Positions 2,767-30,335 of a DNA stretch of 64,000 nt are shown here, one piece after another. Position numbers and translations under genes: made by a program. The stretch is from assembly GCF_056746865.1 (NCBI RefSeq), contig NZ_CM163382.1; one strand, given 5' to 3'. The notes under the pieces are model-generated. The model was not told the DNA's origin. It searched no databases and worked only from the letters and a program-made list of their open reading frames with translations. Position 1 is the stretch's first letter. Each line of letters begins with the position of its first letter.

Positions 2767-3182
2767 GTTTTGCCCTGAAACTGGCGCGTGAGATGGGGCG
2801 ACCCGACTGGCGCGCCATGCTTGCCGGGATGTCATCCACGGAGTATGCCGACTGGCACCGCTTTTACAGTACCCATTATTTTCATGATGTTCTGCTGGAT
2901 ATGCACTTTTCCGGGCTGACGTACACCGTGCTCAGCCTGTTTTTCAGCGATCCGGAGATGCATCCGCTGGATTTCAGTCTGCTGAACCGGCGCGAGGCTG
3001 ACGAAGAGCCTGAAGATGATGTGCTGATGCAGAAAGCGGCAGGGCTTGCCGGAGGCGTTCGTTTTGGCCTGGACGGGAATGAAGTTATCCCCGCTTCCCC
3101 GGATGTGGCGGACATGACGGAGGATGACGTAATGCTGATGACAGTATCAGAAGGGATCGCAGGAGGAGTCCGGTATGGCTGA
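2748..3182 (+). CDS. Tail assembly protein T, expressed as a G-T fusion by -1 frameshift
   Basis: 144-aa -1 frame ORF overlapping the 3' end of G with no independent ATG start; matches the lambda G/GT arrangement. Confidence 0.8.
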   Translation: MFDGELSFALKLAREMGRPDWRAMLAGMSSTEYADWHRFYSTHYFHDVLLDMHFSGLTYTVLSLFFSDPEMHPLDFSLLNRREADEEPEDDVLMQKAAGLAGGVRFGLDGNEVIPASPDVADMTEDDVMLMTVSEGIAGGVRYG

Positions 3183-5730: not shown

Positions 5731-6056
5731 AAACCTTCCGCTGGAAAGTGAAACCGGGTATGGATGTGGCTTCGACTCCTTCCGTCAGGGAGGTGCGCTT
5801 TGGTGATGGTTACTCCCAGCGCGCGCCTGCCGGGCTGAATGCCAACCTGAAAACGTACAGCGTGACGCTTTCTGTCCCCCGTTGGGAGGCCACGGCGCTG
5901 GAATCGTTTCTGGCAGAGCACGGAGGCTGGAAAGCCTTTCTGTGGACGCCGCCTTATGACTGGCGGCAGATAAAGGTGATCTGCGCAAAATGGACGTCGC
6001 GGGTCAGTATGCTGCGTGTTGAGTTCAGCGCAGAGTTTAAACAGGTGGTGAACTGA
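5727..6056 (+). CDS. Tail tip protein M (109 aa)
   Basis: 109-aa ORF overlapping the H stop; lambda M length and order. Confidence 0.85.
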   Translation: MKTFRWKVKPGMDVASTPSVREVRFGDGYSQRAPAGLNANLKTYSVTLSVPRWEATALESFLAEHGGWKAFLWTPPYDWRQIKVICAKWTSRVSMLRVEFSAEFKQVVN

Positions 6057-6754
6057 TGCAGGATATCCGGCAGGAAACACTGAATGAATGCACCCGTGCG
6101 GAGCAGTCGGCCAGCGTGGTGCTCTGGGAAATCGATCTGACAGAGGTCGGTGGTGAACGTTATTTTTTCTGTAATGAGCAGAACGAAAAAGGTGAGCCGG
6201 TTACCTGGCAGGGGCGGCAGTATCTGGCGTATCCCATTCAGGGGAGTGGTTTTGAACTGAATGGCAAAGGCACCAGTACGCGCCCCACGCTGGCAGTCTC
6301 TAACCTGTACGGTATGGTCACCGGGATGGCGGAAGATCTGCAGAGTCTGGTCGGCGGAACGGTGGTCAGGCGTAAGGTTTACGCCCGTTTTCTGGATGCG
6401 GTGAACTTCGTCAACGGAAACAGTGACGCCGATCCGGAGCAGGAGGTGATCAGCCGCTGGCGCATCGAGCAGTGCAGCGAACTGAGCGCGGTCAGTGCCT
6501 CCTTTGTGTTGTCCACACCAACGGAAACGGATGGTGCTGTTTTTCCGGGGCGCATCATGCTGGCCAACACCTGCACCTGGACCTATCGCGGTGATGAGTG
6601 CGGTTATAACGGTCCGGCTGTCGCGGATGAATATGACCAGCCGACGTCCGATATCACGAAGGATAAATGCAGCAAATGCCTGAGCGGCTGTAAGTTTCGC
6701 AATAACGTCGGCAACTTTGGCGGCTTCCTTTCCATTAACAAACTTTCGCAGTAA
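6056..6754 (+). CDS. Tail tip protein L (232 aa)
   Basis: 232-aa ORF; C-terminal cysteine cluster (CTWTYRGDECGY...CSKCLSGCKF) typical of lambda L. Confidence 0.85.
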   Translation: MQDIRQETLNECTRAEQSASVVLWEIDLTEVGGERYFFCNEQNEKGEPVTWQGRQYLAYPIQGSGFELNGKGTSTRPTLAVSNLYGMVTGMAEDLQSLVGGTVVRRKVYARFLDAVNFVNGNSDADPEQEVISRWRIEQCSELSAVSASFVLSTPTETDGAVFPGRIMLANTCTWTYRGDECGYNGPAVADEYDQPTSDITKDKCSKCLSGCKFRNNVGNFGGFLSINKLSQ

Positions 6755-6759
6755 ATCCC

Positions 6760-7503
6760 ATGACACAGACAGAATCAGCGATTCTGGCGCACGCCCGGCG
6801 ATGTGCGCCAGCGGAGTCGTGCGGCTTCGTGGTAAGCACGCCGGAGGGGGAAAGATATTTTCCCTGCGTGAATATCTCCGGTGAGCCGGAGGCGTATTTC
6901 CGTATGTCGCCGGAAGACTGGCTGCAGGCAGAAATGCAGGGTGAGATTGTGGCGCTGGTCCACAGCCACCCCGGTGGTCTGCCCTGGCTGAGTGAGGCCG
7001 ACCGGCGGCTGCAGGTGCAGAGTGATTTGCCGTGGTGGCTGGTCTGCCGGGGGACGATTCATAAGTTCCGCTGTGTGCCGCATCTCACCGGGCGGCGCTT
7101 TGAGCACGGTGTGACGGACTGTTACACACTGTTCCGGGATGCTTATCATCTGGCGGGGATTGAGATGCCGGACTTTTATCGTGAGGATGACTGGTGGCGT
7201 AACGGCCAGAATCTCTATCTGGATAATCTGGAGGCGACGGGGCTGTATCAGGTGCCGTTGTCAGCGGCACAGCCGGGCGATGTGCTGCTGTGCTGTTTTG
7301 GTTCATCAGTGCCGAATCACGCCGCAATTTACTGCGGCGACGGCGAGCTGCTGCACCATATTCCTGAACAACTGAGCAAACGAGAGAGGTACACCGACAA
7401 ATGGCAGCGACGCACACACTCCCTCTGGCGTCACCGGGCATGGCGCGCATCTGCCTTTACGGGGATTTACAACGATTTGGTCGCCGCATCGACCTTCGTG
7501 TGA
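6760..7503 (+). CDS. Tail tip assembly protein K (JAB/MPN HSHPGG motif plus NlpC/P60-like region)
   Basis: 247-aa ORF containing HSHPGG; overlaps I by 103 nt as lambda K/I do. An alternative shorter start at the ATG at 6904 would give 199 aa. Confidence 0.75.
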   Translation: MTQTESAILAHARRCAPAESCGFVVSTPEGERYFPCVNISGEPEAYFRMSPEDWLQAEMQGEIVALVHSHPGGLPWLSEADRRLQVQSDLPWWLVCRGTIHKFRCVPHLTGRRFEHGVTDCYTLFRDAYHLAGIEMPDFYREDDWWRNGQNLYLDNLEATGLYQVPLSAAQPGDVLLCCFGSSVPNHAAIYCGDGELLHHIPEQLSKRERYTDKWQRRTHSLWRHRAWRASAFTGIYNDLVAASTFV

Positions 7504-8072
7504 AAACGGGGGCTGAAGCCATCCGGGCACTGGCCACACAGCTCCCGGCGTTTCGTCAGAAACTGAGCGACGGCTGGTATCAGGTACGGATTGCCGGGCG
7601 GGACGTCAGCACGTCCGGGTTAACGGCGCAGTTACATGAGACTCTGCCTGATGGCGCTGTGATTCATATTGTTCCCAGAGTCGCCGGGGCCAAGTCAGGT
7701 GGCGTATTCCAGATTGTCCTGGGGGCTGCCGCCATTGCCGGATCATTCTTTACCGCCGGAGCCACCCTTGCAGCATGGGGGGCAGCCATTGGGGCCGGTG
7801 GTATGACCGGCATCCTGTTTTCTCTCGGTGCCAGTATGGTGCTCGGTGGTGTGGCGCAGATGCTGGCACCGAAAGCCAGAACTCCCCGTACACAGACAAC
7901 GGATAACGGTAAGCAGAACACCTATTTCTCCTCACTGGATAACATGGTTGCCCAGGGCAATGTTCTGCCGGTTCTGTACGGTGAAATGCGCGTGGGGTCG
8001 CGGGTGGTCTCTCAGGAGATCAGCACGGCAGACGAAGGGGATGGTGGTCAGGTTGTGGTGATTGGTCGCTGA
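7401..8072 (+). CDS. Tail assembly protein I (223 aa)
   Basis: 223-aa ORF with ubiquitin-like N-terminus and glycine/alanine-rich hydrophobic middle; lambda I length and position. Confidence 0.8.
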   Translation: MAATHTLPLASPGMARICLYGDLQRFGRRIDLRVKTGAEAIRALATQLPAFRQKLSDGWYQVRIAGRDVSTSGLTAQLHETLPDGAVIHIVPRVAGAKSGGVFQIVLGAAAIAGSFFTAGATLAAWGAAIGAGGMTGILFSLGASMVLGGVAQMLAPKARTPRTQTTDNGKQNTYFSSLDNMVAQGNVLPVLYGEMRVGSRVVSQEISTADEGDGGQVVVIGR

Positions 8073-8091
8073 TGAAAAACGTTTATGTGAA

Positions 8092-8112
8092 ACCGCCTCC
8101 GGGCGGTTTTGT
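8092..8112 (+). other. Short GC hairpin between I and J (aaccgcctccgggcggtttt)
   Basis: Inverted repeat ACCGCC/GGCGGT followed by a T-run in the I-J intergenic gap; could be a weak attenuator or mRNA-stabilising structure. Confidence 0.35.
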
Positions 8113-8131
8113 CGTTTATGGAGCGTGAGGA

Positions 8132-11100
8132 ATGGGTAAAGGCAGCAGTAAGGGGCATACTCCGCGCGAAGCGAAGGACAACCTGAAGTCCACGCAGTTG
8201 CTGAGTGTGATCGATGCCATCAGCGAAGGGCCGGTTGAAGGTCCGGTGGATGGATTAAAAAGCGTGCTGCTGAACAGTACGCCAGTGCTGGACAGTGAGG
8301 GGAATACCAATATCTCCGGCGTCACGGTGGTGTTCCGGGCCGGTGAGCAGGAGCAGACACCGCCGGAGGGATTTGAATCCTCCGGCTCCGAGACGGTGCT
8401 GGGTACGGAAGTGAAATACGACACGCCGATCACCCGGACCATCACGTCGGCAAACATTGACCGACTGCGTTTTACCTTCGGCGTGCAGGCACTGGTGGAA
8501 ACCACCTCAAAGGGGGACAGGAATCCGTCGGAAGTCCGCCTGCTGGTTCAGATCCAGCGTAATGGTGGCTGGGTGACGGAAAAAGACATCACCATTAAGG
8601 GCAAAACCACCTCGCAGTATCTGGCCTCGGTGGTGGTGGGTAACCTGCCGCCGCGCCCGTTCAATATCCGGATGCGCAGGATGACGCCGGACAGCACCAC
8701 AGACCAGCTGCAGAACAAAACGCTCTGGTCGTCATACACCGAAATCATCGATGTGAAACAGGGCTACCCGAACACGGCACTGGTCGGCGTGCAGGTGGAT
8801 TCGGAGCAGTTCGGCAGCCAGCAGGTGAGCCGTAATTATCATCTGCGCGGGCGCATTCTGCAGGTGCCGTCGAACTATAACCCGCAGACGCGGCAATACA
8901 GCGGTATCTGGGACGGAACGTTTAAACCGGCATACAGCAACAACATGGCCTGGTGTCTGTGGGATATGCTGACCCATCCGCGCTACGGCATGGGGAAACG
9001 TCTTGGTGCGGCGGATGTGGATAAATGGGCGCTGTATGTCATCGGCCAGTACTGCGACCAGTCAGTGCCGGACGGCTTTGGCGGCACGGAGCCGCGCATC
9101 ACCTGTAATGCGTACCTGACCACACAGCGCAAGGCGTGGGATGTGCTCAGTGATTTCTGCTCGGCGATGCGCTGTATGCCGGTATGGAACGGGCAGACGC
9201 TGACGTTCGTGCAGGACCGACCATCAGATAAGGTGTGGACCTATAACCGCAGTAATGTGGTGATGCCGGATGATGGCGCGCCGTTCCGCTACAGCTTCAG
9301 CGCCCTGAAGGACCGCCATAATGCCGTTGAGGTGAACTGGATTGACCCGAATAACGGCTGGGAGACGGCGACAGAGCTTGTGGAGGACACGCAGGCCATT
9401 GCCCGTTACGGTCGTAACGTCACGAAGATGGATGCCTTTGGCTGTACCAGCCGGGGGCAGGCACATCGCGCCGGGCTGTGGCTGATTAAAACAGAACTGC
9501 TGGAAACGCAGACCGTGGACTTCAGCGTGGGCGCAGAAGGGCTTCGCCATGTGCCGGGCGATGTCATTGAAATCTGTGATGATGACTATGCCGGTATCAG
9601 CATCGGCGGGCGCGTGCTGGCGGTAAACAGCCAGACCCGGACGCTGACGCTCGACCGTGAAATCACGCTGCCATCCTCCGGTACCACGCTGATAAGCCTG
9701 GTTGACGGAAGTGGCAATCCGGTCAGCGTGGAGGTTCAGTCCGTCACCGACGGCGTGAAGGTGAAAGTGAGCCGTGTTCCTGACGGCGTTGCTGAATACA
9801 GCGTGTGGGGGCTGAAGCTGCCGACGCTGCGCCAGCGCCTGTTCCGCTGCGTGAGTATCCGTGAGAACGACGACGGCACGTATGCCATCACCGCCGTGCA
9901 GCATGTACCGGAAAAAGAAGCCATCGTGGATAACGGGGCGCACTTTGACGGCGACCAGAGCGGCACGGTGAATGGTGTCACGCCGCCAGCGGTGCAGCAC
10001 CTGACTGCCGAAGTCACCGCAGACAGCGGGGAATATCAGGTGCTGGCGCGCTGGGACACGCCGAAGGTGGTGAAGGGTGTGAGCTTTATGCTTCGCCTGA
10101 CCGTAACAGCGGATGACGGCAGTGAGCGGCTGGTCAGCACGGCCCGGACGATGGAAACCACTTACCGCTTCACACAACTGGCGCTGGGGAACTACAGGCT
10201 GACAGTCCGGGCAGTAAATGCGTGGGGGCAGCAGGGCGATCCGGCGTCGGTATCGTTCCGGATTGCCGCACCGGCAGCGCCGTCGCGGATTGAGCTGACG
10301 CCGGGCTATTTTCAGATAACCGCCACGCCGCATCTTGCGGTTTATGATCCGACGGTACAGTTTGAGTTCTGGTTCTCGGAAAAGCGGATTGCGGATATCA
10401 GGCAGGTTGAAACCACAGCACGCTATCTTGGCACGGCGCTGTACTGGATAGCCGCCAGTATCAATATCAAACCGGGCCATGATTATTACTTTTATATCCG
10501 CAGTGTGAACACCGTTGGCAAATCGGCATTCGTGGAGGCTGTCGGTCAGCCGAGTGATGATGCATCAGGCTATCTGGATTTTTTCAAAGGAGAAATCGGG
10601 AAAACACATCTGGCCCAGGAGCTGTGGACGCAGATTGATAACGGTCAGCTTGCGCCTGACCTGGCTGAAATCAGGACGTCCATTACGGATGTCAGCAATG
10701 AAATCACACAGACCGTCAATAAGAAACTGGAAGACCAGAGTGCAGCGATCCAGCAGATACAGAAAGTTCAGGTTGATACAAATAATAACCTGAACAGCAT
10801 GTGGGCTGTGAAGCTGCAGCAGATGCAGGACGGACGCCTTTATATTGCGGGTATCGGTGCCGGTATTGAGAACACCCCTGACGGCATGCAGAGTCAGGTG
10901 CTGCTGGCGGCAGACAGGATTGCGATGATTAATCCTGCGAATGGCAACACAAAACCGATGTTTGTTGGTCAGGGCGATCAGATATTCATGAACGACGTGT
11001 TCCTGAAACGCCTGACGGCCCCCACCATTACCAGCGGTGGAAATCCACCGGCATTTTCCCTGACACCGGACGGAAAGCTGACCGCTAAAAATGCGGATAT

Positions 11101-20331: not shown

Positions 20332-23304
20332 TTACCAGTGCACTCCAATGGTGAGAAACGCGTTGTTGCGCTCTCCGTTACGTTGATTAATCGCCTTAAA
20401 GGTATGTTGATATTCGACGCCGAGACTGACTTTGTGCGGCCAGGCGTCGTAGTGCGTCTCGCCGGTCCAGATATTCCAGCGGACCCCGACACCGCCAAGC
20501 TGCGCGCCCTGAGTGCCTTTATCACGATAACCGTTGTCCTGAACGTGAGCGTAAGGCTCAATAGTCTGCCCGTTCGCCACCTTCTGATGCCAGCTGACGC
20601 GATAATCTGCCGTCCACGCCTGAATATCCTGACGGACATATTGCGCCGCATCGAGGTACAGGTTTTGGGCAAACCAGCCTGAACCGTTCGGGTGCCATTC
20701 GTCGCTGTATTTGCCGCCATTAAAGAATGAGGCGCTGGCGCGCAGCATGGTATCGGATGCGCCATTTTGCCCGTTCAGCGGCAACTGCTGTTCGACGGCG
20801 AGGAAAAAGATCTGATCGCGCAGCGGCTTCCAGCGCAGACCGGTGCCGGACATCGGATTTTTCACCGGCATCATCACCCCGTTTTCTCCGGTATCGGCAA
20901 AGACGCGGCTATAAACTGAGAGCAGGTCGCCTTCCAGCAGCATATTGCGTCCGATGCGGTACTCGGCTTCCAGTTGCCCATAGCTACGATAGCTTTTCCC
21001 TGGCGCTGCGCCGCCGACATTATTGTTAGCGGTACTCATTGCGCCGGAACGCAAGCCGATAGAAGAATCGAAACTGAACGTCCAGCGGCGACCGACCTCC
21101 TCATGCAGACGGCGGAAATTGAAGCGTTGCTGATTTTGCTCTGGGGTCAGTGGGGTTATCAGCGCCTGATTATCAATGTCATCAATCACCAGCCGGGCGT
21201 AGTGCTGCGTCGCAGGCATGTCATCCAGACGCTGGTTCACGTAGGCCAGTTGTCGGATAAGTGCCGGATCGTCCGGTAGCCCTTTATGCGCCTGTTCGAG
21301 CATTTCCCGCGACTGTGCGATATCACCGCTATCCCACAAGGCGTAACCAAGCGCTGCCTGGGTGTTGCTATTATTCGGTTCCAGTTCCAGCGCGGCGCGC
21401 AAATCACTCACCGCCGCCGGGACATTATGACGTTGGCGATAAATTGTCGCCCGCGCAACGTAAGCGTTGGCAGAAGGCGCAATATTGATTGAGCGCGTGA
21501 GATCGTTCAGTGCGAGTTCCGGCTGACCAGGAATGTAACGTTGCGCATGCAGCCACCAGTAGAGGGCATTGTTTCCCAGCCCACGTTGTTCTGCCTGCTG
21601 AAGCCAGCGATCGCGAGCCGCACCATTTCCTGCCGCCTGGGCGGTATTGGCAGCAGCAAGCAGATCCTCATTGCTCATGTCGTGAAGACTGATTTTCTGC
21701 CAGGCCGCCAGTGCGGTGGCGTAGTCCTCAACCTGATACGCCTGATAGGCTACCGCACGATGTTGCCAGGCGTTCGGTTGTCGTTGTTCGGCCTGAAGCC
21801 ATGCATACAACGCCACACCGGGTAGCGTGTCCCGATAACACTTTGCCAGACGGTTCCAGGCGGCAGCATCGTAGGAAGGCGACATATCGCCCAGCAAGCG
21901 AACTATTGCCGGGCAATTATCTGCAATACCCGGCAACTGACTTTGCCACTGACGTTGCTCCGCCAGCGGTAAGGGTTTCGATAAAATCGCCACCTTCGCC
22001 GGAGTTGCCAGGTAAGGATGACTTTCCAGCAGAGACGCCAGTCGCGCCATTAACGTCTGGCTGACACGCGCATCGCCCTGGAAAGGATAGCGTTGCAGCA
22101 ATAAATCGGCAGCTTCGCGTGACTGCTCGTTCTGCATCAGTTGCCAGGTCAGTTGATCCAGGCGGGTAAGATTTGCCGGTTCTTGCTGATACAGCAATCG
22201 TGCCAGACGCAGAGCTTCAGCCTTGTTACGGGTCGCCACGCTAACGGTATAACGCTCCTCAAGCATTTCATTGGCGGGGAGGGTGGCGAGCAGTTTTTGC
22301 GCTGCGTCGTACTGACCTTCTTTTAACAGCACCGGTAGCGTCGCGCCAACAACATACTGGCGGTTATCGGCAAACTGTACCGTATAATTCGCCAACGCCA
22401 GAACGGGGTTGGCGCTGTATTTAGATAACAGATAGAGCCAACTTTTCTCTTGTGCATCCGTGGTAAACAGCGGCTTATTTTCAATGAGATAACGCTGGAG
22501 GCGTGCTTTTTCGTCACGATAAGCCAGCGCGGTCGCGTAAGTAATATATGACTGCGGATCGGTGAAGATCCCCTGTGATTGCAGCGCCAGGATCCGATCG
22601 TCCAGCTGCCCGGCAAGAAGCACATCAAACCACTGGCGGCGTTCTGCCGCGCTTAATGTGTTCTGCTGGCGTGCTTCATTGTATAGCGTATCTGCCTGGG
22701 ACCATTGCTTCAGGTAGATTGCCCGTTGCAGCAGATCGGTTCGCAGCGTTTTTCCTTCCGGCGATGCAGCAAACGTCGCATCGTTCAGTTGCGCTCTGGC
22801 GACAGGTAATTGTGCCAGCCGCAGGGCATTCTGCCCAACTTCACTGCGACAACGCAGGGTCGGCGCAGCATCGCACGCTTTTTGCTGGGCAAGCAGTTCT
22901 TCAACAGTCGTAACGCTTTTCACTTCAACTGGAATAGCCGCCAGACTGCGCTCAAGTCGGGCATCTCCTGGGTGACGTTTCAGTTGATCCTCAAGCAACA
23001 GCCGCGCCCGGTCATCATGACCAAAATGGCGATAGGCTTCCGCAAGGTATAAAGTTAGCGGAATATTATCCGGCACCTGCTGGTGTATATATTCAAATTC
23101 GCGGATGGCGGTTGCTTCGTCGTTATTTTTCTGTGCCTTCAGCGCCTTGTCGAGACGGGGATAAATAACAAAATGGCGATAATCGCTCAGCCCCAGCTCT
23201 TCTGCGCTGGTGCCGATATTGTCTGCGAGTGCGCTGGTACTCAATAAAGACGTCAGCAGTAAACCAGACCATCCGATGACGCGATTAAGGTTATTCTCCT
23301 TCAT
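20332..23304 (-). CDS. nfrA: NfrA: TPR-repeat periplasmic domain plus C-terminal outer-membrane beta-barrel (990 aa)
   Basis: ORF track gives 997 aa; start placed at MKENNLNRVIGWSGLLL (ATG at 23304) to match E. coli NfrA; C-terminus ends ...NAFLTIGVHW, typical of an outer-membrane barrel. Confidence 0.9.
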   Translation of the reverse strand: MKENNLNRVIGWSGLLLTSLLSTSALADNIGTSAEELGLSDYRHFVIYPRLDKALKAQKNNDEATAIREFEYIHQQVPDNIPLTLYLAEAYRHFGHDDRARLLLEDQLKRHPGDARLERSLAAIPVEVKSVTTVEELLAQQKACDAAPTLRCRSEVGQNALRLAQLPVARAQLNDATFAASPEGKTLRTDLLQRAIYLKQWSQADTLYNEARQQNTLSAAERRQWFDVLLAGQLDDRILALQSQGIFTDPQSYITYATALAYRDEKARLQRYLIENKPLFTTDAQEKSWLYLLSKYSANPVLALANYTVQFADNRQYVVGATLPVLLKEGQYDAAQKLLATLPANEMLEERYTVSVATRNKAEALRLARLLYQQEPANLTRLDQLTWQLMQNEQSREAADLLLQRYPFQGDARVSQTLMARLASLLESHPYLATPAKVAILSKPLPLAEQRQWQSQLPGIADNCPAIVRLLGDMSPSYDAAAWNRLAKCYRDTLPGVALYAWLQAEQRQPNAWQHRAVAYQAYQVEDYATALAAWQKISLHDMSNEDLLAAANTAQAAGNGAARDRWLQQAEQRGLGNNALYWWLHAQRYIPGQPELALNDLTRSINIAPSANAYVARATIYRQRHNVPAAVSDLRAALELEPNNSNTQAALGYALWDSGDIAQSREMLEQAHKGLPDDPALIRQLAYVNQRLDDMPATQHYARLVIDDIDNQALITPLTPEQNQQRFNFRRLHEEVGRRWTFSFDSSIGLRSGAMSTANNNVGGAAPGKSYRSYGQLEAEYRIGRNMLLEGDLLSVYSRVFADTGENGVMMPVKNPMSGTGLRWKPLRDQIFFLAVEQQLPLNGQNGASDTMLRASASFFNGGKYSDEWHPNGSGWFAQNLYLDAAQYVRQDIQAWTADYRVSWHQKVANGQTIEPYAHVQDNGYRDKGTQGAQLGGVGVRWNIWTGETHYDAWPHKVSLGVEYQHTFKAINQRNGERNNAFLTIGVHW

Positions 23305-25528
23305 TTTCGGACTCCAGTTGCGCAACCTGTTCTGTGTTTAAACCTGCTTTGAGTAATAGTGATTGCATCGAAACTTGTAATTCGCGTTGAATTGTCAGGA
23401 CGCGATCCAACGTTTCCTGGCTGATAACGCCTTCGGTGACCAAAAACTTGCCGAGCGGCAGAGAACTGCGTTCATGGCGCAATAACAACACGTTAATTGC
23501 TGAACGATTAATATGACCGAGCGTGGTCAGTATTTCGGCGAACAGGAACTGATGCGGCACATATTGCCGCCAGATTTCACCGGCCTGCTGTTCCGTGAGC
23601 CACTGATGCTGAACCGCATTGTACAACATTGCCCGCGGATCGTGACCGCGTCGGCGCGCATACCAGTGGCGTAACCCCGTGACAATTTGTCCCCGCAGAA
23701 CAATGACGTAACGCACTTTGCGTCCGACTTTACGCGTCAGGGCCGCCAGCGAAACCGGGTCAATACCATCTTCACTGCCGACAATTAACTCATCATTTTC
23801 CAGACGCAGCGGCAGCACTGCATAATGCAGCGCCACGGAGGCCGGCATTTCGGCAATCAGTGATGAAGGGATCTGCCAGGCGTCGATCGACTCCCACGCC
23901 ACGCCGTTTTGCTCTGCCAGCGCCTGTGCCAGCTGTTCGGCGCTAATCAGCCCCTGCATCAGCATTGAACCGCCCAGGCGTAGACCTTCGACGCGATTAC
24001 GCAGTGCTGTATCGAGTTGTTCTTCAGTGATGACCTGATTTTCCAGCAGGATTTGACCTAACGGACGCAACGAGCGGGTATCGCCAGTCACGCTGGGGAA
24101 GTCATGCGTTGTTTTATCCCACGCGACACGACGTGGATCGCCGTGTTGAAGTACCTGTTTTAACGCGCGCCAGTTGGCCATGAAGTTAATCAGGTTGCCC
24201 CAGAAAAGACGCAGGACAGATAGCAGCCCCTGCGTCAGGCCGTAGTAGCCAGTAACGAAAATCACCCGCTGCACGATGCGGTTAATCATCAAGCCAAAGT
24301 TTAGCCACAGCAGAGTCATTAACCATGCGCTGCCGCTGAAAATAGAAAGGAAATGCCAGGCATCGGGCCACAAACTTTCATACGCCAGCAACAGCAAAAG
24401 CTGGATCATCACCAGCATCGCGAGGAAGCTGACAAAGTTACTGATTGCCCCTTTGCGGTCGCGCCAGAGAAAGTAGTTCAGCGTCAGACTGGAGGTCCAT
24501 TTGTGGGTTTTAAAGCCCTGGAAAACAATGCCGATGATCCAGCGAGATTTTTGTCGAACCGCAGTCGAAAAGGTATCGGGGAAATATTCGCGCACGCAGA
24601 TCATGTTTGACGTCCGCGCGTGCTGTAAAAATTTACGCTGCTCGCGTTCTTTGGCTTCGTCCACCACCGGAAAACGGACAAAAATTTCCGTCATACCTTT
24701 TTCTTTCAGGCGGAAACCAATGTCGTAATCTTCAGTAAGACTCTGCACGTCGAAAGCAATACCATCACCGTCAGCTAACAGTGCGGTCACGGCGCGGCGG
24801 CTGAAACAAGTACCGACGCCTGCGCTGGGCACCTGTCCGGCGAGGGCTTCACGCACCGGAACATCTATGCCATGCAGTTCTGAAAACTCATCAATGTAAG
24901 TCATGCTGGTGAAGTGCGTCCATTCGCGTTCGAATGGGTATACCGGGATCTGAATCAGATCTTTACGCTCGACCAGATAGTTGAACAGACGCAATTCCAT
25001 CGGTGAAATTACGTCTTCGGCGTCATGCAGAATAAAACCAGCAAAAGCGAAATTGGCGCTACGCTCAAACTGGGTGATGGCGTCCAGCACGTTGTTCAGG
25101 CAGTCGGCTTTGCTGGTGGGGCCAGGACGCGCGCAGACTACCTTATGCACGTTTGGGAAGCGAGCGCACACTTCGTCAACATCACGCTGAGTATCGGGGT
25201 CGTTGGGGTAGGTGCCAACAAAGATATGATAGTTTTCATAGTCGAGCGTGGTCGCCGCCAGCTCGGCCATATTGCCGATGACGCCCGTTTCATTCCACGC
25301 CGGAACCATAATCGCTAACGGTTTTTCATCTGGTTTATACAGTTCGCGGTAACTCATTCGCGGGTAGCGGCGATAAACACTCAACTTGCGTTTAATGCGG
25401 CGTACCCAGTAGACGACATCAATAAAAAAATCGTCCAGCCCGCTGATGAACATGATGACCGCTAACGTTATCGCGATTACTTTTAAGCCGTAGAGCCAGG
25501 TAGCAAAAACATCAAGAAGCCAGTCCAC
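23291..25528 (-). CDS. nfrB: NfrB: inner-membrane family-2 glycosyltransferase with C-terminal cytoplasmic regulatory domain (745 aa)
   Basis: 745-aa ORF, N-terminal TM helix, GT2-like core; 14-nt overlap with nfrA start; matches E. coli NfrB. Confidence 0.9.
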   Translation of the reverse strand: MDWLLDVFATWLYGLKVIAITLAVIMFISGLDDFFIDVVYWVRRIKRKLSVYRRYPRMSYRELYKPDEKPLAIMVPAWNETGVIGNMAELAATTLDYENYHIFVGTYPNDPDTQRDVDEVCARFPNVHKVVCARPGPTSKADCLNNVLDAITQFERSANFAFAGFILHDAEDVISPMELRLFNYLVERKDLIQIPVYPFEREWTHFTSMTYIDEFSELHGIDVPVREALAGQVPSAGVGTCFSRRAVTALLADGDGIAFDVQSLTEDYDIGFRLKEKGMTEIFVRFPVVDEAKEREQRKFLQHARTSNMICVREYFPDTFSTAVRQKSRWIIGIVFQGFKTHKWTSSLTLNYFLWRDRKGAISNFVSFLAMLVMIQLLLLLAYESLWPDAWHFLSIFSGSAWLMTLLWLNFGLMINRIVQRVIFVTGYYGLTQGLLSVLRLFWGNLINFMANWRALKQVLQHGDPRRVAWDKTTHDFPSVTGDTRSLRPLGQILLENQVITEEQLDTALRNRVEGLRLGGSMLMQGLISAEQLAQALAEQNGVAWESIDAWQIPSSLIAEMPASVALHYAVLPLRLENDELIVGSEDGIDPVSLAALTRKVGRKVRYVIVLRGQIVTGLRHWYARRRGHDPRAMLYNAVQHQWLTEQQAGEIWRQYVPHQFLFAEILTTLGHINRSAINVLLLRHERSSLPLGKFLVTEGVISQETLDRVLTIQRELQVSMQSLLLKAGLNTEQVAQLESENEGE

Positions 25529-25864
25529 ACAAAAACCTTACATTAACGCTGGTTATGTTTAGGGTGGCGTATATTAAGGTTTTTTATGAATTGTGACAGC
25601 TTTTTACCATTAATAGGTATGACTATTGCGGCACGTTATTTTTACACTGGTTATAAAAGTTGCCGTTTGCGTAGAATGTAGACAAAAGCGTGGTGTCAAG
25701 GAGGGGCGGTAAACGTCATAGTGAAGAGGAGTGGTGGCACCGATCAGGTCATCATGTAGTGTAAGCGTCTGGAGGAGGTGAGCAGGGGAGATCATTTTCC
25801 CCGTGCTGAACAAAAAGACGGCGTTGCTGTGGGTACAGGAAGGCTAACTTCATTTCTCTTTAGA

Positions 25865-26401
25865 TTATTTAAGTTTAATATTCAACCAGGAAATAAAGAA
25901 CGTTAAAATAACAAAGGAAAAAACAATCAAAGAGACATTCCTGAAAAATACGTGCTCATAAAAAAGATAAAAAACGTACAAAATTGGGCACGCAACTTTC
26001 AGGACGTTTATATGTTTAGAATTCTCTTTATCTTTAAAGTTAAAATTACATAAAAATATAAAGAAATATGAAAGCATGGCTGAAAACATCATTGATAAGG
26101 CGCGATATGGCAGTCCTGAATTAAAGGTTTCGACTCCTAATAATATTGTCGATAGCGTTGCAATTATAATTGCCACTTTTTTACTAGAGGTGAAAGTAAC
26201 GACAAAAAATATCAATGATATAAATAAGAAAGAAAAAAATATGTAAATATTTGTTGATATATGTACTTTATGAGGAACTGTAAAATAGGTATAACTGATT
26301 GTAATTATGATGGTAATTATTCTGTATAGCATGCATGCTAACAGGCCAATCAGTAGTTTGTTCGCAAATTTATAAGGGGATTCGCTATTGGTTGATTGCA
26401 T
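25865..26401 (-). CDS. Hypothetical polytopic membrane protein (178 aa), AT-rich
   Basis: Four to five strongly hydrophobic segments; very AT-rich codon usage; no recognisable catalytic motif. Confidence 0.4.
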   Translation of the reverse strand: MQSTNSESPYKFANKLLIGLLACMLYRIITIIITISYTYFTVPHKVHISTNIYIFFSFLFISLIFFVVTFTSSKKVAIIIATLSTILLGVETFNSGLPYRALSMMFSAMLSYFFIFLCNFNFKDKENSKHINVLKVACPILYVFYLFYEHVFFRNVSLIVFSFVILTFFISWLNIKLK

Positions 26402-26465
26402 GGTTATTATGCTCTTGAATTGTGTATTTTATTGGAATGTTTCTTGGTTAACTAAAACAATGCAT

Positions 26466-26894
26466 TTAATAGGTGGTGGTGTAAATATCAATGTCATACT
26501 CATTATCACAGACTACTATTACTCTACGAGTTATGTCAAAAAATAACGTTAAATCATAGGTTCCCTGTTCTCTGAAAATACTCTGCGCAAATGACGTGAA
26601 ATTATTCCCATTTATAACTATTTTTACTTTACCTTCATAGATAAGCCAGCAACGAAAACATTCAGCTGTACCAGATAATGTCACTATCTGACTGATTAGA
26701 AGATTTATATTTACCGGATGAGGTAAAAAAAGTCTGTCGTTGAGGCAATCAATATTATGTGTTTGATGAAACTCTTTTCTCATTAATGAAGAGTTATCAT
26801 ATAGCAGGGTTATACTAAACGAGTCAATTCCGTCAAGCTTTTGCATAAATTTGTTTGCTTTATAAATAAGCAACTTTGCTTGTGTTTTTGTCAT
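26466..26894 (-). CDS. Hypothetical protein (142 aa), AT-rich island gene
   Basis: ORF with consistent AT-rich codon usage, same strand and close spacing with neighbours; no motif recognised. Confidence 0.35.
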   Translation of the reverse strand: MTKTQAKLLIYKANKFMQKLDGIDSFSITLLYDNSSLMRKEFHQTHNIDCLNDRLFLPHPVNINLLISQIVTLSGTAECFRCWLIYEGKVKIVINGNNFTSFAQSIFREQGTYDLTLFFDITRRVIVVCDNEYDIDIYTTTY

Positions 26895-26921
26895 GATGGT
26901 GATCTTTTATGCAAGGGGGAA

Positions 26922-27368
26922 TTATTGGAATTCAAATGTTTTATATTCCTCTGTAATCATCTTTAAACTTAACATAGCCATGTCTCGGGTATCTTCATCA
27001 TCAGATTGTAGAGAAATATTTAATCCTTTAATTAAGGTGTTATCGGGAAAAGCCATTGCCAATAATGTACACCAACATCGGACACTTTTTATTGTCAGAG
27101 GATTTTCCAGTATGTTGGCGATATTTGAAGCTATAATGTTTTTATCACACTTGTACAAAAAATCTTCGACCAACTGATATACACCGAAGCCATCACCTTC
27201 CCCAAACGATTGTAAAAATAACGGTATGGCTTCTTCAGCAGGATTTGCAGAAAAATAAAGCCTTACATTGTTATATTTATTGATAAGTTCCTGAGTGATG
27301 TCATAATCATTTGGCATAGGTTGGTTTAGAGCAAGGAATGCTAATGCTTCTTTTTTAGTCATATTCAT
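26922..27368 (-). CDS. Hypothetical protein (148 aa), AT-rich island gene, possible immunity-type protein
   Basis: 27-nt spacing to the downstream gene; small acidic cytoplasmic protein; immunity role is inferred from context only. Confidence 0.35.
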   Translation of the reverse strand: MNMTKKEALAFLALNQPMPNDYDITQELINKYNNVRLYFSANPAEEAIPLFLQSFGEGDGFGVYQLVEDFLYKCDKNIIASNIANILENPLTIKSVRCWCTLLAMAFPDNTLIKGLNISLQSDDEDTRDMAMLSLKMITEEYKTFEFQ

Positions 27369-27698
27369 AATGGTTAATATTGCTTGCTGGAAGAATTAAG
27401 GTAAAAATGGTTCATAGACAGAATTAAATAGGAAGTCTTGTTTCCAGATAACTTTATCATGAAAAAGAGATTTGGCTTGATGCGTATAAAGATTATGAGG
27501 ATAAATAGTTTCTCCACCATAAATGATGTTCTTTCCCGTTACACCGGAGAATTCATTGGCTATAATCTGTCGTTTAAGCCAGTGAATGACTTTACATAAG
27601 CATATTAATTTATCCTTAGAATCAGTTGTGTTAATTTCAGTAAGTTGTAAAATCTTTTCCCCATTATACTCAACTAAATGCCCCGGCTTTATTTCAAT

Positions 27699-27941
27699 TC
27701 AACCACAATAACGATCAATGCTACTAAACTTTATTCTTCTATTGTTAGGTTTAATGCTGGGCATAAGATAAATTCGATGTGCTACGGCAGGGATCTTTTC
27801 TGTTAAGACATTTAATTGCTTAGAGTATTCATCTTGTAGTGTAAACCAAATTGAATGTAATTTGTATTTTGAGGCTACAATCGCGAGCCAATTAGACAGT
27901 TCCTCGTTCGTGCAAAAAACATTTATCCTGGCAGTTGCCAT
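27699..27941 (-). CDS. Small hypothetical ORF (80 aa), possibly a remnant of a decayed gene
   Basis: Short ORF followed by about 330 bp with no long frame; may be part of a frameshifted larger gene. Confidence 0.2.
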   Translation of the reverse strand: MATARINVFCTNEELSNWLAIVASKYKLHSIWFTLQDEYSKQLNVLTEKIPAVAHRIYLMPSIKPNNRRIKFSSIDRYCG

Positions 27942-28185
27942 TCGTAATCCTTTTTATATAAGATTGTGTGAATGTCACCGAAACAACTTGATATGAATAA
28001 AATAGCTAAAGCGAAATGGATGACGTGTTACTAAAAAACCATTCTGAAAAGGAAGCCTGAATAAACGCGATGACGAAACTTCCACTCTCCATGTTTCATC
28101 AGAAAAATAACTAAATTCGATGTGGTTTTCATATAATCTCATTTCACGTAAGGTTCCGCTACCATAAGGGACCGCAATCAGGGAA

Positions 28186-29445
28186 AGATTACGAAAGCCC
28201 GCTCCCAGCAAGGACTGACGCCAGATAGTTTCTGTCCATGGCTGCTTTTCGCATCTTACGTCTTAACCCTGCCTTGAATACCTTATCATTCGTCAAAATA
28301 TTAATAGCGATGTGCCGTATCCCTGAAAATAATTCTGCGGCGTTTCCTCTTCTTATTTTGCAGTCGTCTTCATTCATTACCACGTCCAGACGCCAGTGCA
28401 GCTTATTCTCCACGTGCCAGCGGTTTCGGATTGCTGTGGCGAACTTCTCTGCGGTTAAATCAGCAGAACTGATATAATATCTGACCGTCATTTCTGGCTC
28501 TTTCTTTTGTTCTGCTATTATTGACCGAAAGGAGACTGCCACGCATAATTTCTTCAGACCTTTCCATTCAAACGTGAAATCAATAAGTTCATCAGGGACA
28601 TCGCAAACAATGTGAAGACGGATTTCTTCTCTGCCGTGACTCTTTTCACTAATTGCGTAACTGTCATGCTCTGGATTATTTAATTCTTTCAGTGGGAATT
28701 TTTCCTCAAAGGCTTTATTAAGCCGCCCCTGATTTCCTTTTACAGCGAATAAATAATCACCGCCCTGTTTTTGTATCTTCTCTGCAATATCTTTCTGGCA
28801 ACCCATCGCATCAGTTGTGATGATTTTTCCTTTAATATCCAGCATGTTAAGAAGTTCAGGGATAGCTGTAATCTCATTTGATTTCTCATCCGTCCTGATC
28901 TGTCCGATGACCAGACTGTGCATTGTTGAGAACGCACTAATGACATGAATCGCTCCCTTGCGGCGACTCTTGTCATAAGAATGCCGGAGTGTTTTTCCAT
29001 CAATTGCGATGACGTCTTTATCATCTGAAGAATGGCAGTCACGCATCCAGTTAATAAAGCACTCGTGAAATTTTGCAGGACTGATACAGGATACAACTCT
29101 GGCAATAGTATCGTGAACAGGAATACCATTATCAAAATCACCATATTGCTTCAAAAAATCGAGATGTGTTTCCCCAAAATCCTCTATATCTTCCCAGCCT
29201 TCTGCACCCGAAATAACGGCACAAATAGTCAACAGTAGAATATCCGATAATTTATGTTCCACTTTCCAGGCTTGTCTGTAATCGGGGATAATAGAAATAT
29301 GTTCCATCAATTTTTTAAGTTCCATTTTGTTCTCCTTAATTATGTAAGGAGTATTTGATCATGTATAAGCAATAAAAAACAGCTTCAGGTAATGAGGAAT
29401 ATCTCAATTTGTAAACATAAAATGCGAATTATTTAGTACAAAAAG
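28186..29445 (-). mobile_element. H-rpt (H-repeat, ISAs1-family) element, copy 1
   Basis: About 1.26-kb block repeated at 30336-31598 with near identity; encodes the H-repeat-associated transposase. Confidence 0.8.
28189..29325 (-). CDS. H-repeat-associated protein / ISAs1-family transposase (378 aa, intact)
   Basis: 378-aa [57 protein letters not shown]... matches E. coli H-rpt proteins (YhhI-like). Confidence 0.85.
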
Positions 29446-29673
29446 TGTACTTCTGATGATCTTTCCCTGGGAGGTGATACTGACCGTCTGCCCGAATTCG
29501 TCATAGAGGAAAAACGTCGCGCCGCCCTCCGGGTCAATTTCACACACCGGAAGCCGGTCTTCACTGAAGCGGATAATGGTGGTATGCCCCAGCGAATCAG
29601 TCATCTCCAGCTCATGGCAGAAATCATTCCATACAAAGTGGTAGTCGTAGTACCCGCCGTCGCCCAACAGCAA
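29446..29673 (-). pseudogene. Rhs (YD-repeat) core fragment, truncated by H-rpt copy 1
   Basis: Translation ...DSLGHTTIIRFSEDRLPVCEIDPEGGATFFLYDEFGQTVSITSQGKIIRS has the YD-repeat pattern (DPxGG...YxYD...G); the frame runs into the H-rpt boundary. Confidence 0.5.
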
Positions 29674-29690
29674 TCAATCATCGAATCAAA

Positions 29691-30152
29691 TTAACTTGAC
29701 AAGGTTTTTATTTTTTCGTGTTCGAAAAATAAATGTAGCATAGCGTCATTAATATTACCGCCTATAATACAAAAATAGTTATCAAAACCACCATAAAGAG
29801 CACCATCATCTGAAATAAAATATGTCATATGCTCAGAAAAACCAACACCAACAGGACATAAACGCTTATTGACCAATGGTTCATAGACTTCAGTTATCCA
29901 TTTAGAGTCTATCCAACCAGCAGCTTTTATTGGATCAAAATCGGATTTATCATACTCATTAGGATCTGAATAAGATTCATGCCGTACTATCAACCCTCCA
30001 AACTCTGATAAAAAATCACAAATAATTTCATTAACAAAATATTTCTTAATGGATAAACACTTTATATATTTATCTATGTTTTCTTTTCTGCCATAGTGCC
30101 ATCCATTTTGCAACAGGACACTCATCACTTGTTTATTCGTTATATGATTCAT
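29691..30152 (-). CDS. SUKH-like (SMI1/KNR4-type) candidate immunity protein (153 aa)
   Basis: Size and motifs (FLSEFGGLIV..., LCPVGVGFSEHMTYFISDDGALYGGF...) resemble SUKH immunity proteins; sits directly after a toxin-tip remnant and before an Rhs core fragment. Confidence 0.5.
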   Translation of the reverse strand: MNHITNKQVMSVLLQNGWHYGRKENIDKYIKCLSIKKYFVNEIICDFLSEFGGLIVRHESYSDPNEYDKSDFDPIKAAGWIDSKWITEVYEPLVNKRLCPVGVGFSEHMTYFISDDGALYGGFDNYFCIIGGNINDAMLHLFFEHEKIKTLSS

Positions 30153-30154
30153 AA

Positions 30155-30335
30155 TTACCCCGTTAATACATTAATTCCTAAATATTTGAAAATTTCCTGA
30201 CAGTTTCTACAGTTCGGAAAAGCACTTCCATCACCAGTATGAACTGTAGCCATTTCCAAATCATGCAACGATGAATTATCTTTGAGAGCTTTATTCACCG
30301 CATCTATTTCAGCACAATTATTAACAGCCCAAGGC
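30155..30335 (-). pseudogene. Remnant of a toxin C-terminal tip, possibly deaminase-like, truncated by H-rpt copy 2
   Basis: Short frame whose 5' end is cut by the H-rpt boundary; contains a C-x-x-C element (FPNCRNCQ) loosely resembling the zinc-binding motif of deaminase toxins; weak. Confidence 0.3.

Follow-up and report, generated by a model that had tools for sequence, protein, structure and literature searches.

Immunity proteins of the colicin A/E1 type, and those for pore-forming T6SS effectors, are polytopic membrane proteins that act against membrane-targeting toxins. Orphan immunity genes downstream of cdi and rhs loci are expressed and protective (Poole et al., 2011; PMC3150448), and two further papers document expression and protection for orphan immunity genes in other systems (PMC10539506; PMC12247911). 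The site between nfrB and cusS is Rhs "position 4" in an earlier survey (Jackson et al., 2009; PMC2935791, Table 3). Here we analyse the contents of this site in a 64-kb window, by which we mean the whole stretch of 64,000 nucleotides studied (contig NZ_CM163382.1), and focus on a cluster of small genes beside nfrB. On sequence comparisons, the cluster is probably made up of four orphan immunity genes, each independent of the others and one of them inactivated only recently, in a decayed Rhs/T6SS effector island. The concept is already known, orphan immunity genes at the Rhs hotspot being well documented, and this is a familiar arrangement of that kind and not a new system.

Layout of the cluster and its island

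In K-12 the island is absent and 149 bp separate nfrB and cusS; homology between the window and K-12 stops at 25670 and restarts at 37774, leaving an island of 12.1 kb whose nfrB-proximal end is the focal cluster. The features are:

25865-26401, minus strand: 178-aa ORF, polytopic inner-membrane protein predicted from hydropathy
26466-26894, minus strand: 142-aa ORF, predicted cytoplasmic protein
26922-27368, minus strand: 148-aa ORF, predicted cytoplasmic protein
27396-27941, minus strand: pseudogene of a 181-aa protein, from its in-frame match to an intact gene in R32_14_1F
27975-28178, minus strand: 3' ORF remnant, truncated by ISEc1
28179-29470, minus strand: ISEc1 copy 1, with a 378-aa transposase ORF (repeat and terminal inverted repeat; RefSeq annotation)
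25671-37773, strand not applicable: island between nfrB and cusS, delimited by the homology break against K-12

The first-pass annotation had proposed three co-directional, tightly spaced and extremely AT-rich genes of 178, 142, and 148 aa, and their coordinates and strand are borne out: the gaps between them are 64 and 27 nt, and GC content is 0.29-0.34 over 25750-28000 versus 0.52-0.57 in nfrA/nfrB. The region holds three frames of at least 140 codons, and even one such frame arose in just 3 of 1000 composition-preserving shuffles. Hydropathy gives the 178-aa protein five strong hydrophobic segments and one weaker segment, that is, five to six TM helices rather than the four to five first suggested, and finds no hydrophobic segment in the 142- and 148-aa proteins.

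The roughly 800 bp upstream of these genes had been described as decayed and holding only short broken frames. The stretch does bear a stop codon and is cut by an IS element, but it is mostly one gene of 181 codons, in frame throughout, whose sole interruption is a TGG to TGA change at codon 81 (27699-27701). An intact counterpart, for which a search had been proposed, exists in R32_14_1F (L002, 9028-9573): 27396-27941 aligns to it over its full length, with 92% protein identity and dN/dS of 0.17. Farther upstream, the remnant at 27975-28178 contains a 78-aa ORF that runs into the ISEc1 end; it gave no match in a Pfam search, and outside the 151 genomes with the identical cluster the stretch does not occur.

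ISEc1 (ISAs1 family, H-rpt) forms the upstream boundary of the cluster with its first copy and recurs in a second, repeated copy at 30330-31621; the element has a terminal inverted repeat. We considered that removing copy 1 might rejoin an Rhs YD fragment with the 78-aa remnant, and rejected this: the frames differ, a target-site duplication is absent, and no reading frame reappears when the flanks are joined. Besides the Rhs YD fragment, the island contains a SUKH-3 gene, a YwqJ-deaminase fragment, a Tox-PAAR-like gene, a Tox-GHH2 fragment, and two WD40/BNR-like paralogs; no full-length rhs gene was found within the 64-kb window. The neighbours of the cluster thus include immunity genes and recognisable debris of polymorphic toxins, in line with an immunity role. 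In the slots of the focal genes, sister versions of the island carry SMI1/KNR4 genes (L002, L005, and L006) or a CdiI_N gene (L020).

Of 5426 complete E. coli genomes, 151 carry the entire 2.66-kb stretch at 100% identity, so that a likely role for its four "hypothetical" genes bears on about 3% of these genomes. Among other lineages (L002, L004, L005, L006, and L020) the four genes assort independently, occurring singly or in other combinations. Across all four, dN/dS is 0.10-0.45.

Homologs of the four genes and their neighbours

Family searches left the proteins unclassified, as the first reading had also found: the 178-, 142-, and 148-aa proteins have no Pfam match at E<=1 and no NCBIfam match, and PADLOC-DB v2 gave nothing significant, its only hit being the 178-aa protein against a 2TM effector model (E 0.36). 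None of the four focal proteins matches the Pfam immunity families (SUKH-1 to 6, Imm*, CdiI_N, and colicin immunity), and PDB searches with profiles of the 142-, 181-, and 178-aa families and with the ~264-aa effector described below returned nothing below E 0.2. The evidence on function instead comes from gene neighbourhoods. RhsI immunity genes lie immediately downstream of the variable tip of rhs (PxxxxDPxGL), and homologs of the 148-, 142-, and 181-aa genes are found in this position. RhsI proteins acting on nuclease-type tips are expected to be small and cytoplasmic, with neither a TM segment nor a signal peptide; in agreement, hydropathy shows no hydrophobic segment in the 142- and 148-aa proteins, and the AF2 model of the 181-aa family is compact. 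Because no rhs tip precedes any focal gene in the window, the focal genes are orphans at this locus; an orphan immunity gene in the strict sense has no cognate effector anywhere in its genome, and here neither the locus nor the rest of the 64 kb holds a cognate toxin.

The 148-aa gene has homologs of 45-99% identity across Enterobacterales (dN/dS 0.10-0.22). An Rhs gene stands immediately before the homolog, or overlaps it, in E. coli EC17GD31 (L003), Cronobacter (L010-12), and metagenome contigs (L013-15); these Rhs genes, from three independent taxa, share one post-DPxGL toxin domain, which is unclassified and carries the motif HTPHHAIQ ... GITINLRKDLH. No complete genome has both the window-type and the toxin-linked copy, each genome having at most one place for the gene. 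The best reading of these neighbourhoods is that the 148-aa protein is an orphan RhsI immunity protein for this Rhs C-terminal toxin domain.

The 142-aa family has a narrow range, with members in E. coli and E. fergusonii only, and dN/dS is 0.29-0.45. Its informative member, in L024, is 33% identical to the window protein (tblastn E 4e-13; pairwise E 9e-22) and shares an 11-nt overlap with the 3' end of a gene for a full-length, 1298-aa Rhs whose C-terminus matches Pfam Tox-HNH-EHHH; upstream lie genes for VgrG, a DcrB/DUF1795 (Eag) protein, and a weakly PAAR-like protein. Such a pair of Rhs and 142-aa homolog is present in 72 E. coli genomes. In E. fergusonii, the homolog adjoins an SMI1/KNR4 immunity gene downstream of cusS. 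The 142-aa protein is best read as a diverged orphan from an RhsI family that would confer immunity to Tox-HNH-EHHH nuclease Rhs tips. The toxin link involves one homolog type, and 33% identity is too distant for predicting cross-protection.

The 181-aa family is large, with 108 clusters at 50% identity in which W81 is nearly invariant, and has had no Pfam model: no Pfam family matches the protein at E<=1, and no immunity family matches at E<=0.01 across 65 relatives. Its AF2 model is a compact alpha/beta fold (pLDDT 92). Two of four examined loci were informative about context: one member (P0040, in L022) overlaps an Rhs-type toxin gene in which a C-terminal domain comes after a DPSGL motif, and another (P0044) adjoins an Imm11 gene; of the other two loci, one was on too short a contig and one had an uninformative neighbour. 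A tblastn search for the family in plasmids found nothing beyond the same locus. The pseudogene is thus likely to represent an orphan immunity gene, which would give this uncharacterised family a likely role. UGA read-through in E. coli inserts tryptophan, and the TGA at W81 could in this way still yield some wild-type 181-aa protein.

Full-length homologs of the 178-aa protein, at 42-93% identity, conserve its length and TM pattern. At five loci (L016, L021, L035, L037, and L038) the homolog overlaps the 3' end of a gene for a ~264-aa protein. VgrG lies upstream in L021, L037, and L038, and also in L026-L029, L032, and L033; in L035, VgrG is found only downstream. TssE and TssA genes lie downstream in L017-19, L026, and L027. 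Shorter, 4-TM relatives fill the slot of the 178-aa homolog after VgrG or PAAR, including a PAAR on a Vibrio plasmid, and hhalign links the 178-aa family to the 4-TM proteins encoded after members of the same effector family (95.9%, E 6e-9). The gene order of T6SS cargo immunity partners, after an effector beside vgrG/PAAR or in a T6SS cluster, is therefore that of the 178-aa homologs elsewhere and is not seen in the window. The ~264-aa partner has an invariant YQWFEPLADNYR motif and no hydrophobic segment of its own by hydropathy; Pfam and PDB sequence searches gave no relative, and an AF2 model from a nine-sequence alignment was poor (pLDDT 55). A literature search on DUF6402, a neighbour in one of the T6SS clusters, gave no papers. 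The ~264-aa protein is called a putative T6SS effector from its position only, and it is probably membrane- or periplasm-acting because its immunity protein is an inner-membrane protein. The effector gene is absent from the window, and blastn detected no DNA similar to it in complete E. coli genomes. The 178-aa protein is best read as an orphan member of the immunity family paired elsewhere with this VgrG/PAAR-linked effector, and as a by-product the analysis brings out an unannotated family of candidate effectors with polytopic immunity partners. Scans of species-representative genomes for the 142-aa and 178-aa families found no relatives, so both families are rare.

Function of the cluster and rival explanations

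In the mechanism that we favour, the cluster is what remains at the nfrB end of an Rhs/type VI secretion effector island that has decayed. If expressed in this strain, each product would neutralise one specific toxin delivered by the T6SS of a neighbouring cell. The 148-aa protein would bind the Rhs C-terminal toxin with the HTPHHAIQ motif in the cytoplasm, the 142-aa protein would likewise act in the cytoplasm by binding a Tox-HNH-EHHH nuclease tip of an Rhs, the 181-aa protein, now with its stop at W81, would have bound another Rhs-type toxin, and the 178-aa protein would provide immunity in the inner membrane against the ~264-aa effector carried by VgrG/PAAR. The suggestion in the first-pass annotation of orphan immunity cassettes agrees with these results, since homologs of all four genes lie after or overlap an Rhs toxin or VgrG/PAAR-linked effector gene and no such toxin is present here; its alternative label of toxin-related genes does not hold, as none of the four resembles a toxin. 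Several observations sit uneasily with the favoured explanation: decay is visible in the cluster, the promoter scan turned up no well-placed site, the context of the 181-aa family is thin, and the toxin link of the 142-aa gene comes from one homolog type.

The same genes could be inert relics, former immunity genes that have lost their expression or their use and persist only because the island is young in the clone. Identity of the cluster in all 151 carriers means that selection within the clone cannot be gauged from them, one of the four genes already has a stop codon, and related copies have decayed as well, with a frameshift in the membrane gene of L004 and a truncated 148-aa gene in L005. 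IS elements and rearrangements flank the cluster, and the promoter and terminator scan showed no enrichment, with consensus promoters fewer than in shuffled sequence and none well placed. However, three genes are intact in DNA of about 30% GC, where stops arise easily, dN/dS stays below 0.5 even between orphan copies of different lineages (for example, the window versus L004, L006, and L020), and orphan immunity genes are expressed and protective in the systems cited above. We therefore judge the relic explanation unlikely. The three intact genes might instead form one co-functional operon, such as the phage-defence or membrane-stress module offered as an alternative in the first reading; in it, the membrane protein would be the effector and the two cytoplasmic proteins its partners. 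Their tight spacing, shared direction, and AT-richness suggesting horizontal acquisition fit such an operon, as does the faint, non-significant 2TM effector match, but the PADLOC, Pfam, and NCBIfam searches were without significant match, each gene has toxin-linked homologs of its own, and the genes keep different partners elsewhere, which makes a single operon very improbable. Absence of conservation as a unit had been named in advance as evidence against the cluster reading; that absence is real and counts against a single system, but it does not touch a set of independent orphan cassettes.

Two further alternatives are scarcely credible. In the carrier genomes, RefSeq/PGAP calls a 56-aa plus-strand ORF (26076-26246) and not the 178-aa frame, as would be expected if the shorter ORF were the true gene. 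The 178-codon frame, though, is open in six diverged homologs, to 42% identity, in which all antisense frames are broken; the gene has dN/dS of 0.40 and 0.22, keeps its length and TM pattern, and its homologs retain the overlapping order with the upstream effector gene. The antisense annotation is thus a recurrent RefSeq mis-annotation, corrected here. A functional tie to the adjacent nfrBA exopolysaccharide/phage N4 receptor genes is just as hard to sustain: the cluster lies directly upstream of nfrB in the same direction, and read-through transcription into nfrB is conceivable, but K-12 and most E. coli keep nfrBA without these genes, and homologs of each gene sit at unrelated loci beside toxins.

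An array of orphan immunity genes remains our preferred explanation. If active, the genes would shape which gut competitors the lineage resists. More tentatively, and with some doubt, the array may work as a shield of several specificities, with which an E. coli lineage that lacks the corresponding weapons could withstand T6SS attacks from other Enterobacteriaceae, and the 178-aa and ~264-aa proteins may belong to an undescribed, polymorphic effector-immunity family with 4-TM and 6-TM immunity forms.

Comparison with known systems

The SUKH, SMI1/KNR4, Imm, and CdiI_N families occupy the same slots in sister islands, and a SUKH-3 gene lies in the window itself, but the four focal proteins fall outside the Pfam models of these families. 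As with colicin A/E1-type immunity proteins, the 178-aa family consists of small multi-pass inner-membrane proteins encoded directly after, and overlapping, the gene of a putative secreted effector; unlike them, it shows no sequence relationship to those proteins (Pfam, E<=1), and its partner is a ~264-aa effector without hydrophobic segments.

The cluster also resembles the orphan rhs-CT/rhsI and cdiA-CT/cdiI modules (PMC3150448; PMC2935791): it lies at a catalogued E. coli Rhs locus, its small AT-rich genes have homologs that follow DPxGL-demarcated Rhs toxin tips, and it shares interspersed IS elements and a mosaic content between strains. It differs in that the focal genes are immunity genes only, the usual toxin-tip fragments being missing upstream of all four, and in that one of the proteins, located in the membrane, comes from an effector pair of the VgrG/PAAR cargo type and not from an Rhs pair. 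Compared with the orphan immunity arrays of Bacteroidales, Vibrio cholerae, and Serratia (PMC12247911; PMC8189183; PMC10539506), the cluster sits in an E. coli chromosomal Rhs hotspot and not on a dedicated mobile defence element, is much smaller and partly decayed, and offers putative protection. Like those arrays, it is a tandem set of mixed specificities without cognate effectors, and the presumed role of both is protection from non-self T6SS attack.

The island between nfrB and cusS

The window is part of an E. coli chromosome, and the flagged cluster is the nfrB-proximal end of a 12.1-kb island: homology of the window to K-12, where nfrB and cusS are spaced only 149 bp apart, ends at 25670 and restarts at 37774, and the island is therefore 25671-37773. 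The nfrB/cusS site is Rhs "position 4", one of 11 conserved Rhs positions in E. coli and Shigella (Jackson et al. 2009, PMC2935791 Table 3). Of 5426 complete E. coli genomes, 151 carry the 2.66-kb stretch holding the cluster at 100% identity. A 336-aa hypothetical gene, intact in strain 118UI (L001 20591-21601), is split in the window by an IS3-family element, and so the window differs from these 151 genomes elsewhere in the island.

Features of the island and its nfrB border
23291-25528, minus: nfrB, adjoining the cluster, which sits just upstream
25865-26401, minus: 178-aa membrane protein gene
26466-26894, minus: 142-aa protein gene
26922-27368, minus: 148-aa protein gene
27396-27941, minus: 181-aa pseudogene, full length and in frame
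27975-28178, minus: 3' end of an ORF, cut by ISEc1
28179-29470, minus: ISEc1 (ISAs1 family) copy 1, bounding the cluster upstream
29404-30355: Rhs YD-repeat fragment, SUKH-3 immunity gene (29691-30152) and 66-aa YwqJ-like deaminase C-terminal fragment (30155-30355), between the ISEc1 copies
30330-31621: ISEc1 copy 2, transposase broken into 218-aa and 156-aa ORFs
~32750-34090: IS3-family element, about 1.34 kb and IS2-like in size, with a 301-aa rve transposase ORF and a 136-aa HTH_Tnp_1 ORF
34498-37383: cusS-proximal stretch, with a Tox-PAAR-like gene (34498-34812) and a 99-aa Tox-GHH2 nuclease fragment (37084-37383) adjoining cusS
34866-35906 and 36018-37058: two paralogous 346-aa WD40/BNR-like genes

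The first-pass annotation had described three tightly spaced, AT-rich genes without a recognisable domain, and this description holds: the three ORFs are on the minus strand with gaps of 64 and 27 nt, cluster GC is 0.29-0.34 (0.52-0.57 in nfrAB), and scans of Pfam, NCBIfam, and PADLOC recognised none of the three proteins. At such composition, three open frames that each reach 140 codons are far above chance expectation, even one having arisen in only 3 of 1000 shuffles. By hydropathy the 142-aa and 148-aa proteins have no hydrophobic segments; the 178-aa product is a membrane protein as proposed, with five strong hydrophobic segments and one weaker in place of the four to five helices first counted. 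In carrier genomes RefSeq/PGAP calls a 56-aa antisense ORF (26076-26246, plus) instead of the 178-aa gene. Homologs of the 178-aa protein are full length down to 42% identity with length and motifs conserved, dN/dS is 0.40 relative to a copy with 80% identity and 0.22 relative to one with 42%, and in six diverged homologs (29-32% GC) the frame is open and every antisense frame is broken; together these show that the 178-aa frame is a real gene and the 56-aa ORF a mis-call.

The upstream stretch, taken at first for about 800 bp of short broken frames, is mostly a full-length copy of a gene that is intact in strain R32_14_1F (L002; proteins 92% identical), and only 27975-28178 is a truncated ORF end. 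The sole interruption of the 181-aa frame is TGG>TGA at codon 81 (27699-27701), where tryptophan is nearly invariant across the family. Joining the flanks of ISEc1 copy 1 in silico restores no frame and reveals no target-site duplication, which points to an IS-mediated rearrangement at this junction.

Homologs beside toxin genes

Homologs of the 148-aa protein are spread across Enterobacterales, and in three independent settings (E. coli EC17GD31, with a 4-nt overlap; Cronobacter; three metagenome contigs) one comes immediately after an Rhs gene or overlaps it. The Rhs proteins of all three settings have in common a domain after DPxGL (GEDLYVGTY...HTPHHAIQ...GITINLRKDLHxLTWT) that has no Pfam match. 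The Hafnia homolog is one of a series of small genes that lack annotation. Window-type and toxin-linked copies never occur together in a complete E. coli genome. The 142-aa family is limited to E. coli and E. fergusonii. E. coli 64A:C has a homolog at 33% identity (tblastn E 4e-13, pairwise E 9e-22) with an 11-nt overlap into the end of an Rhs gene. That gene encodes 1298 aa with a Tox-HNH-EHHH tip (Pfam), and upstream of it are genes for VgrG, a DcrB/DUF1795 protein, and a weakly PAAR-like protein; 72 E. coli genomes have the pair, the toxin being annotated there by PGAP as an HNH/endonuclease VII fold polymorphic toxin.

Homologs of the 178-aa gene in two comparison loci (L016, L021) overlap the 3' end of a gene for a ~264-aa protein, called an effector from its position, and in L021 the VgrG C-terminus is encoded directly upstream. 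A T6SS cluster contains a degraded pair of this type, preceded by VgrG-DUF6402-DUF6201 and followed by TssE/TssA. No trace of the effector is present in the window, and complete E. coli genomes hold no effector-like DNA at blastn sensitivity. The invariant motif of the effector family is YQWFEPLADNYR, and a metagenome scan for YQWFEPLADNY gave 13 more loci; members are L016 227-1018, L021 352-1146, L026-L038, and L039 5995-6789. VgrG is upstream in most of the 13, and in every scanned locus with downstream sequence a small polytopic membrane gene follows, in most cases overlapping the effector's 3' end. This gene is of a 185-aa type (L035, L037, L038) or a 114-138-aa 4-TM type, the latter aligning with helices 1-4 of the 178-aa family (hhalign, 95.9%, E 6e-9). 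L031 has four paralogous membrane genes of this slot in tandem. The neighbour is VgrG in Enterobacteriaceae-like contigs and PAAR on a Vibrio aerogenes plasmid, where the order is PAAR, effector, unannotated 122-aa 4-TM gene. The effector has no Pfam or PDB relative, and its AF2 model is poor (pLDDT 55). These proteins are apparently an unannotated family of T6SS cargo effectors followed by 4-TM or 6-TM proteins.

Genomic context says less about the role of the 181-aa gene than about those of the other three. The family comprises 108 clusters at 50% identity, each of ~180 aa, with no Pfam model; its AF2 model is confident (pLDDT 92) and has no informative PDB neighbour. One member has a 23-nt overlap with a gene whose product ends in an Rhs-type core followed by a DPSGL motif and then a C-terminal domain that has no Pfam match and, judged from its residues, may carry a PD-(D/E)xK-like signature (RRPDITF...ENVGK). 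Another adjoins an Imm11 gene, a third has no informative neighbour, and a fourth contig is too short to show neighbours.

Cassettes, remnants, and probable orphan immunity

Gene content of sister islands
R32_14_1F (L002): SMI1/KNR4, 181 aa, 148 aa, ISAs1
Locus L005: SMI1/KNR4, broken 181 aa, truncated 148 aa
2020CK-00188 (L004): frameshifted membrane gene, 142 aa, extra 110-aa ORF, 148 aa
Locus L020: CdiI_N, membrane gene
E. fergusonii (L006): ISAs1, SMI1/KNR4, 96 aa, 142 aa

Sister islands hold differing subsets of the cluster genes, a pattern of cassettes that assort independently and not of a multi-gene machine; pairwise dN/dS across all of them is 0.10-0.45. In E. fergusonii the 142-aa gene follows cusS, ISAs1, and an SMI1/KNR4 gene. 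The unannotated 110-aa ORF of 2020CK-00188 (L004 10154-10486, minus), between the 142-aa and 148-aa homologs and without Pfam or PADLOC matches, is possibly one more orphan cassette. When the 142-aa protein of the window is compared with that encoded at L004 9594-10022, the last ~60 residues are near-identical (one A/V difference) and the N-terminal half is far more diverged, which suggests recombination within the gene. Elsewhere in the island, 29404-30355 resembles a toxin/immunity module of the deaminase kind, orphaned and decayed, and 34498-37383 probably represents one more toxin remnant, together with duplicated immunity genes. A 40-aa ORF at 37492-37614 matches the SMI1/KNR4 N-terminus of L002, L005, and L006 and then diverges, suggesting that an ancestral SMI1/KNR4 module was displaced by the present ones. 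ISEc1 copy 2 is annotated as intact in 118UI. Large ORFs at ~3000-15500, upstream of appY, ompT, and envY, match prophage tail genes, annotated in 118UI as gpJ and tail-fibre proteins, and have no relation to the cluster.

Toxin-adjacent homologs, the absence of cognate toxins from the window, and independent assortment support the leading idea of the first-pass annotation, orphan immunity cassettes. Since a promoter scan of the cluster returned nothing useful and decay is evident in the window locus and in sister loci, part or all of the cluster may have become a silent relic, which we consider rather unlikely. For orphan immunity, we infer expression, binding, protection, and toxin targets: by analogy with characterised Rhs/CDI and T6SS toxin/immunity pairs (PMC3150448), each product would neutralise a single toxin arriving from outside by binding it. 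The cytoplasm would be the site of action of the three soluble proteins, of which two probably counter nucleases; the membrane protein would counter its effector, delivered by VgrG/PAAR, at the inner membrane. Of the by-products, the putative effector/polytopic-immunity family, so far unannotated, and the RefSeq mis-call of the 178-aa gene are of most use; the cluster itself is probably an unremarkable array of orphan immunity genes at an Rhs hotspot already known, built from families still unnamed in databases.
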